Assembly: GCA_036502625.1 (NCBI GenBank)
Contig: DASXYG010000032.1
Location: 1,755-65,754, forward strand
Reading direction: 5' to 3'
Source of the DNA: Streptosporangiaceae bacterium
GTDB lineage: Bacteria > Actinomycetota > Actinomycetes > Streptosporangiales > Streptosporangiaceae
DNA: 64,000 nucleotides
Notes under the pieces: model-generated
What the model was told of the DNA's origin: nothing
Database searches by the model: none
Seen by the model: the letters and a program-made list of their open reading frames with translations, nothing else
Shown here: in pieces, positions 9,707-21,744 of the stretch
How the letters are laid out: each line of letters begins with the position of its first letter
Position numbering within the stretch: position 1 is the stretch's first letter
Program-made: the position numbers and the translations under genes

Positions 9707-10020
9707 GTCCGGCGTTCGGGCGTGTAAAGGCCGCGCTTCGCGCGCGCTTTTCTTGCGTCCCGACGTGAGCGTTCTCGGGGCTGGGGCGCGAGGGCTGCCG
9801 CGCCCTGGTTTGCGGATGCTCTCGATGGCGTGGCATGGCGTGGCGTCCCTGGGCGCGCGTCTTGTGCGGTGCGCGAGGCTTGCGGGCGCGCTTGTGGCGC
9901 ATGCGGCGCGGGCGGGGTGCGGCGTTCGTACGCGCAAAGGCCGCGCTGCGCGCGCGCTTTTCCCGCGTCCTGATGTGAGCGTTCTCTGGGTGGGGCCGCG
10001 GGGGCTGGCGCCCTTTGGCT
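9707..10020 (+). repeat. Two forward copies of a ~100-bp element carrying an A-tract/GC-hairpin/T-tract core
   Basis: 9707-9810 and 9917-10020 align at roughly 80% identity by eye. The cores are AAAGGCCGCGCTTCGCGCGCGCTTTTC (9726-9752) and AAAGGCCGCGCTGCGCGCGCGCTTTTC (9936-9962). Confidence 0.8.
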
Positions 10021-10127
10021 CGCGCTCTTCCTCGTGTCCTGACGCCGAGGTTCTTGGGGGTTGGGGCGTGGCGCTGACGTCCTTTGGCGCTGGTGGTTAC
10101 GGGGGGTGGGGCGGGGTGGCCACTCGG

Positions 10128-10445
10128 CGCCGTGAGGGCGGTGGTCTGAGGGCGGAGCCCCCGCGGCCCAACCCTGAGGACGCCTCGCCAAGGTCGCGGG
10201 CAAAAGCGCGCGCGAAGCGCGGCCTCTTCGTGCGAGGCCGTGTGCCCCTGCCCTGGCACGCCTGGGGGAACGCGCGGGGCGGGGGAGGGCGGCGCCGTGA
10301 GGGCGGTGCTCTGAGGGCGGAGCCTCCGCGGCCCAACCCCGAGAACGCCTCGCCAAGGTCGCGGGCAAGAGCGCGCGCGCAGCGCGGCCTTTTCTCGCGC
10401 GGCTATGTACCCCTCCGGGAGAGCGCGCGAAGCGCGGCCTTTCGT
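10128..10445 (-). repeat. Two to three copies of the same element family in inverted orientation
   Basis: 10128-10250 and 10295-10415 align with each other and with the reverse complement of the forward copies. The cores are AAAAGCGCGCGCGAAGCGCGGCCTCTT (10202-10227), AAGAGCGCGCGCGCAGCGCGGCCTTTTC (10367-10394) and a partial GAGCGCGCGAAGCGCGGCCTTTC (10421-10443). Confidence 0.8.
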
Positions 10446-10559
10446 GCGCGAGGCCGCGAGCGCGGCCCGGCGGCGCGGCCCGGCGGGGCGGGGCGCGGGC
10501 GCGGGGCGAGCGCGGCCCGGCGGCGGGGCGGCCGGGGCGGGGTGCGGGGGCGGGGCGAG

Positions 10560-11969
10560 TTACTCGGGGGCGTCGTCTGTGCGGGCGGCGGCTAGGACGC
10601 GGGCGGCGTCGTTGTCTGAGGCTGTGCGGGCGGCCAGGGTGATGGCGCCGCCTATCACCATCGGCACCACCAGGACGTACATTGCGGCGGTCAACGAGCC
10701 TGTGGCCTGGGAGCTGAGGCCGACGATCAAGGGGCCGCCCGCGGTGCCTGCCGTGAGGACCAACTGGAGGACGCCGAAACCCACGCCGCGGGAACCGGCG
10801 CCGATGACGTCGGCGACCGTGGCCGTCAGCGTGGGGATGGCGATGGCCATGATCACGACCGAGGCGAACAGCAGCACGGTGAACAGCGTGAACGTGGTCA
10901 TCATCATCGACAGGCCGAGGACCGCGGAGCCGATCAGCATGCCGCCGCCACCGGCCAGCACCCGGCCGCCGCGCCGTACGCCGTGCCAGCGGCGGCCGAG
11001 GCGCATGCCGATCATCGTGCCGAGCAGCACACCGACCAGGGAGATGCCGCCGGTGGTCAGCGCCGCCGCGCCGACGCCCACGCCGTACGTGCGGTACACC
11101 AGGCTGGGCAGCCAGTAGAAGATCCCGGCGAGGCCCAGCGTCAGGATCCCCACGCCGATCCCGACGAGCACCGCCGTGCGGATCGCCATGATCTCCTTGA
11201 GCTGCGCGCCGATCCCGGGGCCGGCCGGGCGGCCGGGTGTGCGCGCGGCCGGTGCGGCGTCCGGTACGGGCACGGTGTCGGTGCCGCCCGCGGCCGCGAC
11301 CCGGTCGACGAAACCGCGCGGCGGCTCCCGCAGGCGGAGGCAGAACCACGCGACGATCAGCCCGGGGACGGCCATCACGAAGAACGCCGTACGCCATCCG
11401 GCGGCCTGGCCGACCACGCCGCCGAGGATCGTGCCGACGGCGGTGCCCGCGTAGACGGTGAGCCGCGTCCAGCCGAACGCGCGGTCGCGGGACCGCGGCG
11501 GGTAGTAGTCGCCGAGCAGGCTGCCGACCACCGGGTTGTCGATGTTCTCGGCGGCGCCCAGCACGATCCGGGTGACGTAGAACATCGCGAACGACACGGC
11601 CGCGCCGGACGCCACGGTGATCACCGACCACACCACCACGACCAGCCCGACCAGCCCGATCATCCGGGTCCTGCGGTAGCGGTCGGCGATGTAGCCGGCC
11701 GGGACGGCGACGATCATGCCGGCGATCGCGGCGGCCGTGGGGATCGACCCGGCCCAGGCGTCGCCGATGTGCCACTGGTGCTGGATCAGCGGCAGCACGC
11801 CGGAGACGATGTTGTACTCGATCCGGTCGACCAGGCCGACGCAGAACACCACGATCAGCGGCGCCCAGCCGAACGGCGCGTGGAGCAGTGCGCTGACCCC
11901 GTCGGGCGGCGGTGCGCCCATACGCGTGAACCACGGACCCTGTACGCGCTGGATGCGAGTCATATTCAC
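10560..11969 (-). CDS. MFS transporter
   Basis: 469 aa and multi-TM. GYIADRYRRTRMI matches the MFS loop 2-3 motif. The track ORF 9490-12009 only extends a different frame through the repeats. Confidence 0.85.
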   Translation of the reverse strand: MNMTRIQRVQGPWFTRMGAPPPDGVSALLHAPFGWAPLIVVFCVGLVDRIEYNIVSGVLPLIQHQWHIGDAWAGSIPTAAAIAGMIVAVPAGYIADRYRRTRMIGLVGLVVVVWSVITVASGAAVSFAMFYVTRIVLGAAENIDNPVVGSLLGDYYPPRSRDRAFGWTRLTVYAGTAVGTILGGVVGQAAGWRTAFFVMAVPGLIVAWFCLRLREPPRGFVDRVAAAGGTDTVPVPDAAPAARTPGRPAGPGIGAQLKEIMAIRTAVLVGIGVGILTLGLAGIFYWLPSLVYRTYGVGVGAAALTTGGISLVGVLLGTMIGMRLGRRWHGVRRGGRVLAGGGGMLIGSAVLGLSMMMTTFTLFTVLLFASVVIMAIAIPTLTATVADVIGAGSRGVGFGVLQLVLTAGTAGGPLIVGLSSQATGSLTAAMYVLVVPMVIGGAITLAARTASDNDAARVLAAARTDDAPE

Positions 11970-13326: not shown

Positions 13327-13484
13327 CGGGACCGGTTCTACCTCGGTTTCGCTAACGACGCATCACGGTGGTCCATCGAAAGAATGAATGAACCTCATGA
13401 TCCGGTCGTAACGGGGATGAAACGCACATCGGGCCGGGTCGTAACACGCGGCGGCGAGGGTGGCACGCGGTTCGCCCCCGCACG

Positions 13485-14807
13485 ATGCAGTACGAGAGAG
13501 GGACCCGCATGAGCCCAAGCGCAGCCCCCGCTGCGACCGCTGTCGGCGCTCCGGTGCGCGAGCTGCGCCGGATCGCCACGGCATCGTTCATCGGCACCGC
13601 ACTGGAGTGGTACGACTTCTTCCTGTACGGCACCGCCACCGCCCTGGTGTTCAACAAGCTGTTCTTCCCGAACGTGGACCCGGCCGTCGGCCTGATCGCG
13701 TCGTTCTCCACCTTCGCCATCGGCTTCGTCGCGCGGCCCGTCGGCGCGCTGATCTTCGGCCACTTCGGCGACCGCATCGGCCGCAAGCGCACCCTCATCG
13801 CCACGGTCACGCTGATGGGCGCGGCCACCGGCCTCGTCGGCGTCATCCCGTCGTACGCCTCCATCGGCCTGGCCGCGCCGGTCATCCTGGCCGTGCTGCG
13901 GTTCCTCCAGGGCGTCTCGGTGGGCGGCGAGTGGAGCGGCGCCATGCTGCTCACGCTGGAGAACGCGCCCGCCGAACGGCACGGCAGGTACGCCGCGATC
14001 CCGCAGCTCGGCTCCCCGGCCGGCACGCTGCTGTCCAGCGGCGCGATGACCGCCGTCGCGTTCCTGCCCGACGCGCAGTTCTACTCCTGGGGCTGGCGCC
14101 TGCCGTTCCTCGCCGCGTTCGTGCTGCTCGGCGTCGGGCTGTACCTCCGGCTGCGGGTCGAGGAGTCGCCGGTGTTCCAGCGGCTCGTCAAGGAGGACCG
14201 CACCGTACGGGTGCCGCTCATCGAGGCGTTCCGGCGCACCGGCGGGCGCATGCTGGTCAGCGCGTGCGTCGCGTTCACCGGCATCGGCGCGTTCTTCCTG
14301 CTCACCACGTTCATGATCAGCTACGTCGTGGACACGCTGCACATGTCGCGGCCGGTCATCCTGAACGCCACGCTGCTCGCCGCCGTGCTCGAGGCCGTGG
14401 TCATCGTCGTGACCGGGCGCTTCGTGGAGCGGTTCGGCGCGGCGCGCGTCTGCGCCGTCGGCGGCCTCCTCGGCATCGTGCTGGCGTACCCGGTGTGGGC
14501 GCTGGTGGACACCCGGTCCCCGGTGCTGGTCACGATCGCCGTGGCCGGCACGATCGCGCTGCTGTCCATCCCGTACGCCCCGGTCGGCGCCGTGATCACC
14601 AACCTGTTCCCCGAGGAGATCAGGTACAGCGCGGTGTCCATCTCCTACAACATCGCCGGGCTCGCGGGCGGTTTCGTGCCGCTGCTCGCGCAGAGCCTGC
14701 TCGGCGGGTTCGGCGCGTCGTGGCCGCTGGCGATCCTGCTCGGCCTCATCGCGGCGATCACCGCGGCCGGCTCGTTCGCGGCGATGCGGATGCGGCTGCC
14801 CGCCTGA
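13485..14807 (+). CDS. MFS transporter, MHS family (paralog of 5901-7250)
   Basis: GTALEWYDFFLYGTATALVFNKLFFP and GHFGDRIGRKRTL. ATG at 13509, preceded by GAGAGAGGGA, is the more likely start. Confidence 0.85.
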   Translation: MQYERGTRMSPSAAPAATAVGAPVRELRRIATASFIGTALEWYDFFLYGTATALVFNKLFFPNVDPAVGLIASFSTFAIGFVARPVGALIFGHFGDRIGRKRTLIATVTLMGAATGLVGVIPSYASIGLAAPVILAVLRFLQGVSVGGEWSGAMLLTLENAPAERHGRYAAIPQLGSPAGTLLSSGAMTAVAFLPDAQFYSWGWRLPFLAAFVLLGVGLYLRLRVEESPVFQRLVKEDRTVRVPLIEAFRRTGGRMLVSACVAFTGIGAFFLLTTFMISYVVDTLHMSRPVILNATLLAAVLEAVVIVVTGRFVERFGAARVCAVGGLLGIVLAYPVWALVDTRSPVLVTIAVAGTIALLSIPYAPVGAVITNLFPEEIRYSAVSISYNIAGLAGGFVPLLAQSLLGGFGASWPLAILLGLIAAITAAGSFAAMRMRLPA

Positions 14808-14833
14808 TCCGCCCGCCCGGCGACAATCGGGGG

Positions 14834-15475
14834 ATGGACAGCACGCCGCACACCGTACGGGGGAGCGGCGCACACGAGATCGAGGTGCGCCGCTCCCGGT
14901 TCATCGGCGCGGTCGCCCCGGTGCGCGACGCGGCCGCGGCGCGCGCGTTCGTCGAGGGGCGGCGCGCCGCGCACCCGTCCGCGCGCCACCACTGCTTCGC
15001 GTACGTCCTCGGCGGCGGCGCGGACCGCGCCGAGAAGGCGAGCGACGACGGTGAGCCGTCCGGCACCGGCGGCGCGCCCATCCTCGAGGTGCTGAAGAAG
15101 CGCGAGATCACCGACGCGGTGGCGGTGGTCACCCGCTACTTCGGCGGCGTGCTGCTCGGCGCGGGCGGGCTGATCCGCGCGTACGGCCAGGCGGCGGCGC
15201 GCGCAGTGGACACCGCGGGCGTGGTGGCGCTGACCCCGGTGGCGATCGTCACGGTGACCGTCGGCTACGCCCACGCGGGACGGCTGGAGAGCGTTCTCCG
15301 CGAGTCCCGCACCATCCGCGACGTCCGCTACGGCACCGACGGCACGGTCGCCCTCGACCTCGCCGTCCCCGAGTCGCAGATCGCCGCCCTGCGGTCCCAG
15401 TTGGCCGACCAGACCTCAGGGGCTGCCACGATGGAGCTCCTCACGACGGAGTACCTCCCGCAGCGGAACGGGTGA
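14834..15475 (+). CDS. YigZ/IMPACT-family (UPF0029) protein
   Basis: EIEVRRSRFIGAV, ARHHCFAYVLG, DDGEPSGTGGAPIL and VVTRYFGGVLLGAGGLIRAY match the family. In frame with track ORF 13460-15475. Confidence 0.8.
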   Translation: MDSTPHTVRGSGAHEIEVRRSRFIGAVAPVRDAAAARAFVEGRRAAHPSARHHCFAYVLGGGADRAEKASDDGEPSGTGGAPILEVLKKREITDAVAVVTRYFGGVLLGAGGLIRAYGQAAARAVDTAGVVALTPVAIVTVTVGYAHAGRLESVLRESRTIRDVRYGTDGTVALDLAVPESQIAALRSQLADQTSGAATMELLTTEYLPQRNG

Positions 15476-16064: not shown

Positions 16065-16860
16065 CGGCCACGACGGACACGACGAGTTCGACGACTGGCT
16101 GCGCAGCTCGGTTGAGCCGCTGCCGCCGCCACCGGGGACGTACGACCGGGTCCGCCGCCAGGCGCGCCGCCGCAGGCTCGGCAAGGCGCTCGCCGTGGGC
16201 ACGCTGGCCGCCGTCGTCGTGGTCGGCGGCGCCACGGTGCCGCGCATGCTCCGCGGCGCCGAGCCGCAGACGCTCTACCCGAAGACCACCGGGTCGTCCG
16301 GCACGCTCGCCACGCCGCGCGCGACCGCGCACCCGACGCACTCCGCGCCGGACCGGACGAGCACGCCGAGCCATTCCAGCGCGGCGTCCGGCAGCCTCAC
16401 GCCCGAACCGCACCACTCGCAGGCGCCGCCGCCCGCCGCGGGCCCGTCCCGCTGCCACACCGGCGACCTGTCCGTGCGCGTGACCGGCGGCGACGCGGGA
16501 GCGGGCCAGCGTTACGCGGGCGTCGTCCTCACGAACACCTCGTCGCGGACCTGCACCGTGTACGGCTACATCGGCGTGGCGCTGTCCGGCCCGGCGCCCA
16601 CCGACCTCATCCGCGACCCGGGCGACCGCCACCGCGTCACGCTCCCGCCCGGCGGCGCGGCGGCCACCAGCCTCCACTGGACGGCGGTGCCGGCCGACGG
16701 CGAGGGCCCCAACTGCGGACCCCGGCCCGCGAGCATCGCGATCACCCCGCCGGACGAGACCACGCAGCACACGGTGTCGTGGCCGTACGGCGGCGTCTGC
16801 CAGCACGGCGAGATGCACACGGTGCCGCTCGTGCGCGGCAGCAGCCCGCCGCCGATCTGA
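16057..16860 (+). CDS. Membrane-anchored DUF4232-domain protein, putative cognate anti-sigma factor
   Basis: Overlaps the sigma gene by 8 nt. It has a short cytoplasmic N-terminus, one TM segment (LAVGTLAAVVVVGGA), a Ser/Thr/Pro linker and a Cys-containing C-terminal domain (CHTGDLSV...LTNTSSRTCTVYGYIGVAL...NCGPRPA...GGVCQHG). Confidence 0.65.
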   Translation: MSDGHDGHDEFDDWLRSSVEPLPPPPGTYDRVRRQARRRRLGKALAVGTLAAVVVVGGATVPRMLRGAEPQTLYPKTTGSSGTLATPRATAHPTHSAPDRTSTPSHSSAASGSLTPEPHHSQAPPPAAGPSRCHTGDLSVRVTGGDAGAGQRYAGVVLTNTSSRTCTVYGYIGVALSGPAPTDLIRDPGDRHRVTLPPGGAAATSLHWTAVPADGEGPNCGPRPASIAITPPDETTQHTVSWPYGGVCQHGEMHTVPLVRGSSPPPI

Positions 16861-19804: not shown

Positions 19805-20170
19805 TCAGGTCGCGGCGGCCAGACGGACCAGGTCGTCGAGCCCGGCGCGGCTCTCGGCGCCGCGCGGCACGCCGTGTCCGGAGTCCGGTCCGTCCGCCCA
19901 GTGCCGGAGGGTGTCGAGCGGGCGCAGGCCGGACGCCTTGGCCTCGCGGAGCAGGCCGACCCAGGCCACGCCCGCGTTGTCGCCGGCGTCGCCGGCCGAC
20001 GCGGCGGGGACGAAGCCCGCGGCCTGGTCGTCCTCGGCCGCCCACAGATAGCCGAGCAGCAGGTCGCCGTGGTGTACGGCCACGTAGCGGACCGGGCCGT
20101 CGGTCGTCCACGGCCATTCGTCCGGCGCGGAGACCGTCTCGAAGCGCGGTTCGTCGTCCAGCGGGCCCAT
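19805..20170 (-). CDS. Small acidic protein, putative immunity protein for the upstream ADP-ribosyltransferase toxin
   Basis: 121 aa from ATG at 20170, with a GGAGGA RBS, 32 nt after the toxin stop. Sequence begins MGPLDDEPRFETVSAPDEWPWTTDGPVRYVAVHHGDLLLGYLWAAEDDQ.... I recognise no family for it, so the role is inferred from position only. Confidence 0.5.
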   Translation of the reverse strand: MGPLDDEPRFETVSAPDEWPWTTDGPVRYVAVHHGDLLLGYLWAAEDDQAAGFVPAASAGDAGDNAGVAWVGLLREAKASGLRPLDTLRHWADGPDSGHGVPRGAESRAGLDDLVRLAAAT

Positions 20171-20202
20171 GGTGTCCTCCGATGACGCGCGATCGAGGCG
20201 GG

Positions 20203-21744
20203 TCACTTGATCACGGTGCCGTAGACGTTCCAGATTCCGTCGACCTTCTCGACGTGGTCGACACGGTACTTCGTGCCGCGGTCCAGGGTGATCTCGAGAT
20301 CCTTCTGGCCGGGGTGGAACACGCCGCCGTCGCCGAGGTATCCCGGCGCCACGGCGTGTGTGCCCTTCGGCACGCGCAAGTACATGTTGACCGGGGTGGC
20401 CTTGCGCCTGAAGATGTTCTGCCAGACCGCGGGCCGCTCCTCCGGCTTGGGCGCGGCGCTCACCGACAGGTATCCCGGATCGGTGATCGTCCGCCCGGGG
20501 AGCCGGCTCACCGGGACCTTGAACGCGTCGTCGCCGACCACCCGGGCCGCGATCACGTCGCTGGGCAGGCTGGACCGCTTCATCGCGCCGTCGATGAGCG
20601 GTACGTCCCGCTTCGCCTCGGGGGTGGCCGGACGCTCGCCGCGGAGGTAGTCGTTGATGTCCCGGTAGTTCGGGTCCAGCCGGTAGTTGAACAGGGCCTC
20701 GCGCTGCCTCTTGCCGAGCTTCGAGGTCTGCGGCCCCATCTTCTCGTCGAGCCACTTCTGGAACGCGGCCGGATCCTTGTAGTACGTCGCGCCCTTGCGC
20801 CAGGTCTCCGGCCCCGGCCATTTGTCGGCCCCGGCGGTGTTCTTGGGCGCGTTCTTGACCTTCTCGTCCGGGACCTTGTCCGGCTTGGCCGCCTCCGCGC
20901 CGGCGGCGCCGGCGTCCTCGCCGGCCCGCGCGGCGCGTGCCACCTTCGCCGCGCGCGCCGCCCTGCCGAGGGCCTTGGCGCCCGGGATCGGGACGAACAT
21001 CGAGCCGACGTCGGTGCCGGCGCGCCCGACGGCGGTGGCGTAGTCGCCGTCCTGGGCCGACGTGTACGCCTCCTTGCTGACCGGGGGGCCGCCCACGAGC
21101 GTGGTCAGCGGGTTGGCCAGCGACATCGCGTGGCTCATGCACTCGTAGCCCCGCGGGTCGGCGCCGCAGGCCGCGTAGGTGTGCGGCCACGCCATCAGGC
21201 CGTAGTTCCACTGGTACTTGGCCCAGTTGGTGACGGTGCTGACCGGGTGCCGGGCGATGTGGGCGAGGCCGCCGCCGAAGGCGACCGCGCCGTCGGAGGC
21301 GCCCTCGGCCAGGTTCTTCCCGTAGTGGAGGGCGCATCCGAAGAAGCCGTGGCACTCGTCCGGGTGGCCGACCATGACCTTGAGCGGGCGGCGTGCCTTG
21401 TCGGTGGAGCCGGCGGGGGCGTGGCCGCCGCGGATCGGCGTGGCCCGTGCCACCGGGGCGGCCTGGGGTTTCGGCGCGGTCGTGCAGGTCCTGGCCCGAT
21501 CGCCGGACACGACCCGGCACACGGTGGTGCTCACGCCGTGGCCGATGGTCGTGCCCACCCCGGAGGTGGCCAGCGCGACGACGACGATCACCGCGAGGAT
21601 GCCGAGCGCGAGGAACTCGAAGATCGTTCGTCCGTCGTCGCGCCTGACATGGGCGTCCCTGCGGGACCGGAACACGCGGACCTCCCGGCGGCCAGAGGCG
21701 TGGATGTGGATCAAGAACCAGGAGAGGCTACCGTGATCGGACAT
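20203..21744 (-). CDS. Polymorphic toxin: N-terminal Flp/TadE-like hydrophobic segment, Cys-rich central region, C-terminal C3/Vip2-like mono-ADP-ribosyltransferase domain
   Basis: The C-terminal ~175 aa contain ALFNYRLDPNYRDINDYLRG, VIAARVVG (Arg), DPGYLSVS (S-x-S) and FHPGQKDLEITLDRGTKYRV (catalytic Glu loop). This is the R / S-T-S / [QE]-x-E arrangement of ADPrib_exo_Tox-type enzymes. The N-terminus reads RRDDGRTIFEFLALGILAVIVVVALATSGVGTTIG. Confidence 0.7.
   Translation of the reverse strand: MSDHGSLSWFLIHIHASGRREVRVFRSRRDAHVRRDDGRTIFEFLALGILAVIVVVALATSGVGTTIGHGVSTTVCRVVSGDRARTCTTAPKPQAAPVARATPIRGGHAPAGSTDKARRPLKVMVGHPDECHGFFGCALHYGKNLAEGASDGAVAFGGGLAHIARHPVSTVTNWAKYQWNYGLMAWPHTYAACGADPRGYECMSHAMSLANPLTTLVGGPPVSKEAYTSAQDGDYATAVGRAGTDVGSMFVPIPGAKALGRAARAAKVARAARAGEDAGAAGAEAAKPDKVPDEKVKNAPKNTAGADKWPGPETWRKGATYYKDPAAFQKWLDEKMGPQTSKLGKRQREALFNYRLDPNYRDINDYLRGERPATPEAKRDVPLIDGAMKRSSLPSDVIAARVVGDDAFKVPVSRLPGRTITDPGYLSVSAAPKPEERPAVWQNIFRRKATPVNMYLRVPKGTHAVAPGYLGDGGVFHPGQKDLEITLDRGTKYRVDHVEKVDGIWNVYGTVIK

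Follow-up and report, generated by a model that had tools for sequence, protein, structure and literature searches.

Polymorphic toxins that act by ADP-ribosylation, and the immunity genes paired with them, are well known. In one such pair from Serratia, the immunity protein Tri1 is an ARH/DraG-like ADP-ribosylhydrolase (ARH). Both Tre1–Tri1 (PDB 6DRE/6DRH) and the Lmo0066 pair of Listeria monocytogenes (PDB 8ZA7) place an antibacterial ADP-ribosyltransferase (ART) effector next to an immunity gene, and delivery relies on a type VII secretion system (T7SS) or on the PAAR protein of a type VI secretion system (T6SS). Pilins have entered the field from another side. The Kil system of Myxococcus combines a Tad pilus with variable, interchangeable minor-pilin 'Tips' tied to contact-dependent killing, the toxin not having been identified (PMC8460266, PMC12075869). 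For the CD38-like ADP-ribosyl cyclase (ARC) polymorphic toxins, 'Flp pilins' are named among the N-terminal modules (J Biol Chem 2025, PMC12605009). That paper mentions the module in passing, as an 'extracellular or cell-wall anchoring element', without analysis, and the examples in the figure include Nonomuraea and Streptomyces proteins without specifying which of them carry it. This was the only published mention of polymorphic toxin tips on Flp-pilin modules that we found, and literature on polymorphic toxins with TadE or prepilin elements yielded nothing relevant beyond the Kil papers. Pilins are absent from the accessible part of the 2012 catalogue of trafficking modes of polymorphic toxins. 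The locus described here lies in a stretch of 64,000 nucleotides from a metagenome contig assigned by NCBI to a Streptosporangiaceae bacterium (the window; GC 73%). It encodes an ART toxin followed by a small acidic protein, and the pair is probably a toxin–immunity module belonging to a polymorphic-toxin family of actinobacteria. It is in this respect a further member of a familiar group, one whose immunity family is uncharacterised and whose ADP-ribosylating turn-turn (ARTT) loop has an unusual D-x-E. The added value lies in a conserved Flp-pilin-like leader and a cysteine-containing stalk that, in Streptosporangiaceae and Streptomyces, bear toxins of at least six unrelated types.

The genes and the elements of the toxin tip are as follows, with residue numbers, here and throughout, counted on the 513-aa open reading frame (ORF) before correction of its start:

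20203–21744, minus strand: toxin ORF, 513 aa as first read (ORF list and sequence)
20206–20829, minus strand: toxin cassette, residues 306–513, a helical N-terminal extension and an R-S-E mono-ADP-ribosyltransferase domain (Pfam, AlphaFold, Foldseek, alignment)
20542–20544, minus strand: catalytic R401, motif AARVVG (alignment of 28 relatives)
20464–20466, minus strand: catalytic S427, motif LSVS (alignment of 28 relatives)
20293–20301, minus strand: D482-L-E484, motif DLEITL, with E484 catalytic (alignment of 28 relatives)
19805–20170, minus strand: putative immunity gene, 121 aa, acidic (ORF list, contexts of homologs, predicted structure)

The ORF at 20203–21744 on the minus strand ends in a genuine ART-fold domain with its catalytic triad. 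An earlier note, made from the letters of the window without database searches, had read the C-terminus as an R-S-E mono-ADP-ribosyltransferase; the peptide elements that it quoted are all present, and Pfam, a confident model and a structure search agree with it. The Pfam family ADPrib_exo_Tox (PF03496) matches residues 330–501 with E=1.4e-14 and 54.4 bits, above the curated cutoff of 23.4, and a sequence search of the PDB returned Vip2 (2e-6), Plx2A, C2-I, CPILE-a, C3larvin, Listeria Lmo0066 and Serratia Tre1. The note would have given up its proposal had no ART fold been predicted. An AlphaFold model of the toxin tip (residues 297–513, built on 28 relatives) reached a predicted local distance difference test score (pLDDT) of 93.3 and a predicted template-modelling (pTM) score of 0.88, and its best Foldseek match was the Listeria ART effector 8za7_B (E=1.2e-13, template-modelling (TM) scores 0.70/0.83). 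CDTa, Plx2A, Vip2, iota Ia and C3 came next, E values ranging from 1e-13 to 1e-11 with the best match included. Of the 139 PDB matches that Foldseek gave at E<=1e-3, the 50 listed at the top are ART toxins without exception.

Like C3/Vip2/iota-type ARTs, the window toxin matches PF03496 above its cutoff, has a predicted fold with TM scores of ~0.65–0.70 and carries a Y-x-x-I-N-x-x-L-R helix, a catalytic Arg, an S-x-S element and, in the ARTT loop, a catalytic Glu. Across the 28 aligned sequences this helix, R401, S427 and E484 are invariant, as are a few other positions. Unlike these toxins, the window toxin has D-L-E where theirs has Glu or Gln first, it has no B component and no Rho- or actin-binding context, and its enzyme domain is fused to a membrane/pilin-like module and followed by a gene for a cytoplasmic partner. 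The earlier note was right that the usual [QE]-x-E reads D-L-E: D482 stands at position –2 of E484 as a conservative acidic variant, and HMMER places it opposite the first Glu of the Vip2 E-x-E. Among the window toxin and its five closest relatives, the –2 residue is Asp in five sequences, the window's included, and Glu in one. Elsewhere it is Glu in the wider family (ERELLLGRG) and Thr, Ser, Asn or Asp in a WXG100-linked subclade. ART enzymes with E-x-E and Q-x-E differ in target specificity, E-x-E being associated with the arginine type. By analogy with these enzymes, an acidic –2 residue, D-x-E for E-x-E, suggests arginine-type specificity for the window toxin, whose ART domain would be expected to be enzymatically active.

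Tips and N-terminal modules recombine in both directions in this family, and the polymorphic-toxin reading is based on this observation. The homology of the tip with WXG100-type relatives begins at query residue 306–308, so that the cassette can be set at 20206–20829 plus the small ORF. A clear case is Streptosporangium sp. NBC_01639 (CP109272, locus L004, 6894–9998), which encodes a 1034-aa protein composed of WXG100_2 (T7SS), NUDIX and a homologous ART tip. Its small downstream ORF (124 aa) is 56% identical to that of the window. The two toxins share the tip from ~residue 306 and the homologous downstream gene; they differ in the N-terminus, WXG100_2 and NUDIX there and an Flp-like helix with a CHG stalk here, and in the ARTT loop, which reads T-H-E in NBC_01639. 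WXG100_2, WXG100 or T7SS_signal modules also accompany the tip in many further relatives. Conversely, an exhaustive HMMER protein search with the window toxin found five full-length relatives and at least 12 proteins that match only the N-terminal module (query residues ~34–300). The tips on these are Ntox17, EndoU, calpain-like Peptidase_C2, or PT-HINT followed by other domains. At locus L010, a protein with the same leader bears RNase_A_bac and has a CdiI_2 immunity gene behind it, and a PT-HINT toxin there has the same leader too. Several of the N-terminal-module proteins come from the window's metagenome sample and its NCBI accession series of metagenome-assembled genomes, and on these grounds one organism appears to hold at least nine paralogs with the leader. 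The exchange of C-terminal domains at related loci that the earlier note had proposed to look for is therefore found both ways, with one N-terminal module bearing many tips and one tip standing on several modules. Further, the small ORF moves along with the tip, since its homolog follows the ART gene behind the WXG100_2 front end in NBC_01639. The same note would have taken an invariant gene pair without tip variation as a sign of housekeeping genes; the architecture across relatives is a mosaic.

The paralog loci in sample 3300036773 are L010 8455–12227, L015 10001–14143, L016 6814–8736 (minus strand) and 10001–11722, and L012 10001–11341. They include the tandem RNase_A_bac and CdiI_2 pair and the PT-HINT toxin, two tandem calpain-like toxins with a small ORF after each, and a 640-aa leader-bearing protein without a recognisable tip. 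In NBC_01639 (L004), the ART toxin has an IS605-type OrfB/TnpB gene and a Y1 transposase ~4.5 kb upstream (765–2440). About 3 kb downstream of that toxin, a Gln_amidase gene with small downstream ORFs (13436–15160) is possibly another toxin–immunity set.

The second gene of the window was described in the earlier note as an acidic 121-aa ORF, 32 nt downstream of the toxin ORF and with its own GGAGGA ribosome-binding site, which is of no recognised family and sits where an immunity gene would be expected. The gap, the ribosome-binding site and the acidity are all as described, and the predicted isoelectric point of the protein (4.45) is complementary in charge to that of the ART domain (9.62). 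Its product has no match among Pfam, NCBIfam or PADLOC families, and the Foldseek search of its AlphaFold model against the PDB gave no fold match (best E=1.3), which bears out the absence of a recognised family. Neither in sequence nor in fold does it resemble known immunity families, whether ARH/DraG-like proteins of the Tri1 type or the Imm, SUKH and CdiI families of Pfam. Similarly, it differs from the partner of Lmo0066, which the PDB entry title gives as an ADP-ribosylhydrolase, in having no ARH signature or fold match. The delivery modules of the Lmo0066 and Tre1 pairs are also unlike that of the window toxin. No signal peptide, transmembrane or other hydrophobic segment was detected in it. 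A word-indexed search returned nine clusters, the window's own included, with eight homologs at 45–69% identity. All five hits with readable context, counting the window, lie directly 3' of an ART gene of the same clade, in the standard position of an immunity gene; homologs downstream of an ART gene were seen at L003, at L004/L005/L006, at L007 and at L008. At L003 the small ORF overlaps the ART gene by 4 nt, and relative to the window the small proteins are 69% and the toxins 39% identical. Two more small-ORF homologs, P0008 and P0007, probably adjoin the toxin relatives P0013 and P0015, with whose contigs theirs agree exactly in length. Collectively, these observations support the small ORF as a cognate and previously unclassified putative immunity gene, whose product would neutralise the toxin.

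Several observations weigh against this account of the pair. To our knowledge, there is no characterised ART with Asp as the first residue of [QE]-x-E. The toxin family is rare and known mostly from metagenomes; in the GTDB species-representative genomes there were pattern matches, none of which was confirmed as a relative by tblastn. The AlphaFold model of the small protein, a small alpha/beta protein, is moderately confident at pLDDT 73. Moreover, the pairing of toxin and small ORF is not obligatory, because the ART relatives P0161 (L012, from the window's own sample) and P0012 (L013) have no downstream small-ORF homolog. These two could be orphans or could rely on protection in trans. The gene that follows P0161 (L012 10001–11341) or P0012 (L013 3515–4861) is an opposite-strand SodA gene in one case and one for an AraC-type regulator in the other.

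The two relatives without the small ORF would also fit an exotoxin against eukaryotes such as insects, amoebae or fungi, in the manner of Vip2, C2, iota and C3, the small ORF being a chaperone or an unrelated gene. The nearest solved structures after the Listeria effector, actin- or Rho-modifying toxins, point the same way. We nevertheless regard an anti-eukaryotic role as improbable: the top structural match is a bacterial effector–immunity pair, a small cytoplasmic ORF is kept directly downstream in two different delivery architectures, and sisters with the same N-terminus bear classical antibacterial tips (EndoU, Ntox17 and RNase_A_bac with CdiI_2) with known immunity genes. Even less credit can be given to an endogenous regulatory or housekeeping ADP-ribosyltransferase with a partner regulator and no role as a weapon. 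The chromosomal neighbours are ordinary (major facilitator superfamily (MFS), LysR, methyltransferase and TetR genes), the GC content at third codon positions (GC3) is native, and neither flanking repeats nor mobile-element genes were found, all of which such an enzyme would lead one to expect. Against it stand the mosaic architecture of the relatives with many unrelated toxin tips on one N-terminal module, the rarity and patchiness of a family for which no relative was confirmed in the GTDB representatives, and the placement of the enzyme domain outside the cell behind a membrane helix.

The N-terminal half of the toxin consists of the following parts:

21484–21675, minus strand: Flp-pilin-like N-terminal module, residues 24–87 (family alignments, motif)
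21631–21633, minus strand: G38 (sequence)
21616–21618, minus strand: E43, position +5 (sequence)
20959–21369, minus strand: conserved extracytoplasmic stalk domain, residues ~126–262, from DECHGFFGC (C131, C137) to GDYATAVGRAGTDVGSMFVPIPGAKALG (two alignments of the N-terminal module)
20830–20958, minus strand: low-complexity linker rich in Ala, Lys and Glu, residues ~263–305 (sequence; variable in the family alignment)

The Flp-pilin-like leader escaped the first reading of the sequence and is new here. The motif G/xxxxE[YF] is the class III signal of Flp/TadE-type prepilins in the Tad literature. In the window toxin, a basic 14-residue leader is followed by G38-RTIF-E43-F44, which conforms to this signal, then by a hydrophobic helix of ~20 residues and a C76...C87 pair. 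Among 13 aligned family members Gly is present in all 13 and Glu in 11, and Gly falls at residue 7–21 in 15/19 members, the leader being 6–20 residues long in most. A short basic leader, the G/xxxxE[YF] motif and a hydrophobic helix are shared with Flp/Tad type IVb pilins and with modular minor pilins. With the latter and with Kil (PMC8460266, PMC12075869) the window toxin also shares the grafting of a functional module C-terminal to the pilin helix; however, no toxin domain was identified on the Kil pilins, whereas the passenger here is a recognisable enzyme toxin with a putative immunity gene. The CD38-like ARC toxins have a toxin fold unlike that of the window toxin, and share with it an Flp module by name.

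The stalk behind the helix ends at the junction GDYATAVGRAGTDVGSMFVPIPGAKALG, beyond which family members diverge. The toxin contains six cysteines (76, 87, 131, 137, 193 and 202), none of them in the membrane helix. C76, C87, C131 and C137 are invariant in a 14-sequence alignment of the N-terminal module without P0066, and in another that includes P0066 C131 and C137 are only nearly invariant. The earlier note had also likened the peptide FVPIPGAKALG to a pre-toxin module of the PT-TG type. This has found no support in Pfam, where the central region, the peptide included, matches neither PT-TG nor any other family even at E<=10; the peptide falls in the conserved junction motif GdYa.A.GR...N.G..f.P.k.PGLgkLGK.

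The route by which the toxin would leave the cell can be inferred from this N-terminus in two ways. According to one proposal, the toxin is a bona fide Flp prepilin that is cut after G38 by a Tad prepilin peptidase, pulled out of the membrane by the Tad machinery and borne on a Tad pilus, where it would probably sit at the tip or be sparsely scattered along the length. According to the other, which leaves the toxin–immunity pair as it is, the helix is a mere signal anchor inserted by Sec/YidC, no prepilin peptidase or Tad machinery takes part, the toxin either stays on the cell surface or is released by proteolysis, and the Flp likeness stems from ancestry or composition. The leaders of seven relatives match only Flp-type families in Pfam, namely DUF4244 (PF14029) and Flp_Fap (PF04964), and no other family, which counts against a simple anchor. 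All of these matches are sub-threshold (for DUF4244, E from 7e-4 to 0.06 and 13–19 bits against a cutoff of 27; weaker and also below the cutoff for Flp_Fap). The window's own leader matches no Flp family in Pfam, and a PDB profile search with the leader reached Flp pilins only at E=3–7, which is not significant. A word-indexed protein search with the 14-sequence N-terminal alignment returned no proteins at all, Ala/Lys low-complexity words having filled the candidate list, and the first word-indexed search, limited in the same way, gave only 2 hits. The signal itself can be read both ways. The invariant Gly and the G-x4-E-[YF] in register at residue 7–21 in most members speak against a generic anchor, but four members have Ser or Gln in place of the +5 Glu, and in at least four a domain with four transmembrane (TM) segments precedes the 'leader'.

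Genomic context is divided in the same manner. In Streptomyces sp. NPDC050509 (L014), the family member P0086 lies between genes for TadC-, Flp- and TadG-like proteins and a prepilin peptidase gene, all within 10 kb: a T2SSF (TadC-type) gene, a gene for a 76-aa Flp-like protein, a Tad/TadG-like gene (PF13400, E=1.2e-8) and a Peptidase_A24 gene, near which a second leader-bearing protein of 517 aa is encoded. The helix of P0086 and the Flp-like protein encoded there share 72% identity (23/32, E=2e-10). This locus gives the pilin reading its strongest support and argues for more than an anchor there. In seven other contexts, no tad genes occur near the toxin, that is, within 10 kb on either side in L001 (the window), L010, L012, L015 and L016 and on the whole L017 and L019 contigs; the three loci that a metagenome scan supplied likewise have no tad genes. 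The 64-kb window holds no T2SSE-type ATPase motif and no other ORF with G-x4-E-[YF]. In these respects, a match to an Flp model above threshold and nearby tad genes, the window toxin differs from Flp/Tad pilins. Taken together, we hold carriage on a Tad pilus to be a tentative and rather unlikely proposal, while the plain signal anchor, to which we give somewhat less than an even chance, is at least as likely as the Tad route.

The tad-type neighbourhood of L014 (1–5171 and 16700–21794) also contains a two-component system, an OmpA-domain protein, DUF3592, DUF192 and a 4-TM gene, and a tiny Flp-like ORF remnant is found at ~16720–16820. A conserved membrane protein of ~135 aa with four TM segments and no Pfam family is encoded just ahead of toxins with the Flp-like leader, and the two genes often overlap by 4 nt. 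Separate genes of this kind are found at L013 3102–3518, L017 2750–3163 and L014 17100–17558, and the domain is fused to the toxin N-terminus at L003 595–1000, L014 10001–10400 and L019 4397–4830. A homologous 4-TM domain stands ahead of the leader in at least four members, and in others the upstream gene is translationally coupled. No 4-TM protein gene stands beside the window toxin. The protein may be an accessory factor; if the toxins were carried on Tad pili, the upstream or fused protein would be a dedicated one.

Should the leader prove functional, Tad pili would take their place beside the type V secretion system (T5SS), T6SS, T7SS and umbrella particles as platforms for toxin delivery, and a testable tie between Tad pili and contact-dependent killing would be at hand. 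The Tad pilus would then be a contact-dependent toxin-delivery device in monoderm actinomycetes, one absent from the 2012 catalogue of secretion routes as far as its accessible part goes. The course of events that we propose can be outlined. The precursor would be translated, probably from the GTG at 21675, and its Flp-pilin-like helix would insert in the membrane with the basic leader inside the cell and the remainder outside. The stalk, which starts at CHGxxGC and is likely stabilised by disulfides, would thereby come to lie outside the cell, with the C3/Vip2-type R-S-E mono-ADP-ribosyltransferase at its end past a flexible linker. Using NAD+, the transferase could modify a target in a neighbouring bacterium. 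The co-transcribed 121-aa acidic protein would remain in the cytoplasm, where it could bind and block the basic ART domain in the producer and its kin.

The earlier note had further remarked that the 3' end of the toxin gene is less GC-rich than its neighbours and had taken this as a sign of acquisition. The number stands: GC at 20203–20800 is 0.677, the 4.6th percentile of 600-nt windows. The sign of acquisition does not, since GC3 of the ART part (residues 321–513) is native-like at 0.95, against 0.93–0.98 in neighbouring genes, and a foreign origin read from the GC content was rejected on this ground. Because GC3 is at that level, the small ORF has a GC of 0.77 and there are no flanking repeats, the dip is a matter of amino-acid composition (a protein rich in Lys, Asn, Tyr and Asp) and not of foreign codon usage or recent import. 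A mobile cassette was likewise rejected, as the locus has no flanking repeats and no promoters or terminators of note. A role in anti-phage defence was dismissed for want of a PADLOC match, and a match to PspM/Rv2743c (E=0.005–0.012, far under the cutoff and confined to the TM region) was disregarded.

The remaining features concern the starts of the two genes, which belong to a same-strand run of MFS transporter, toxin, small ORF and methyltransferase:

20203–21675, minus strand: probable true toxin coding sequence, 490 aa, with a GTG start (ribosome-binding site and starts of relatives)
21681–21686, minus strand: GGGAGG ribosome-binding site, 5 nt upstream of the GTG at 21673–21675 (sequence)
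20175–20180, minus strand: GGAGGA ribosome-binding site of the small ORF, 4 nt before its ATG (sequence)

The 513-aa ORF of the earlier note is present at 20203–21744 on the minus strand, but its start requires correction. The GTG at 21675 is probably the start of the toxin, giving 490 aa, because GGGAGG lies 5 nt upstream, because P0023, a fragment 86% identical to the window toxin, begins at exactly that GTG (codon 24), and because full-length relatives align with query residue 27–34 from their own residues 5–11 onwards. The 23 codons upstream of the GTG (21676–21744) have a GC of 0.62 and a GC3 of 0.86, both below the rest of the gene, which is more in keeping with non-coding or leader DNA than with a coding stretch.

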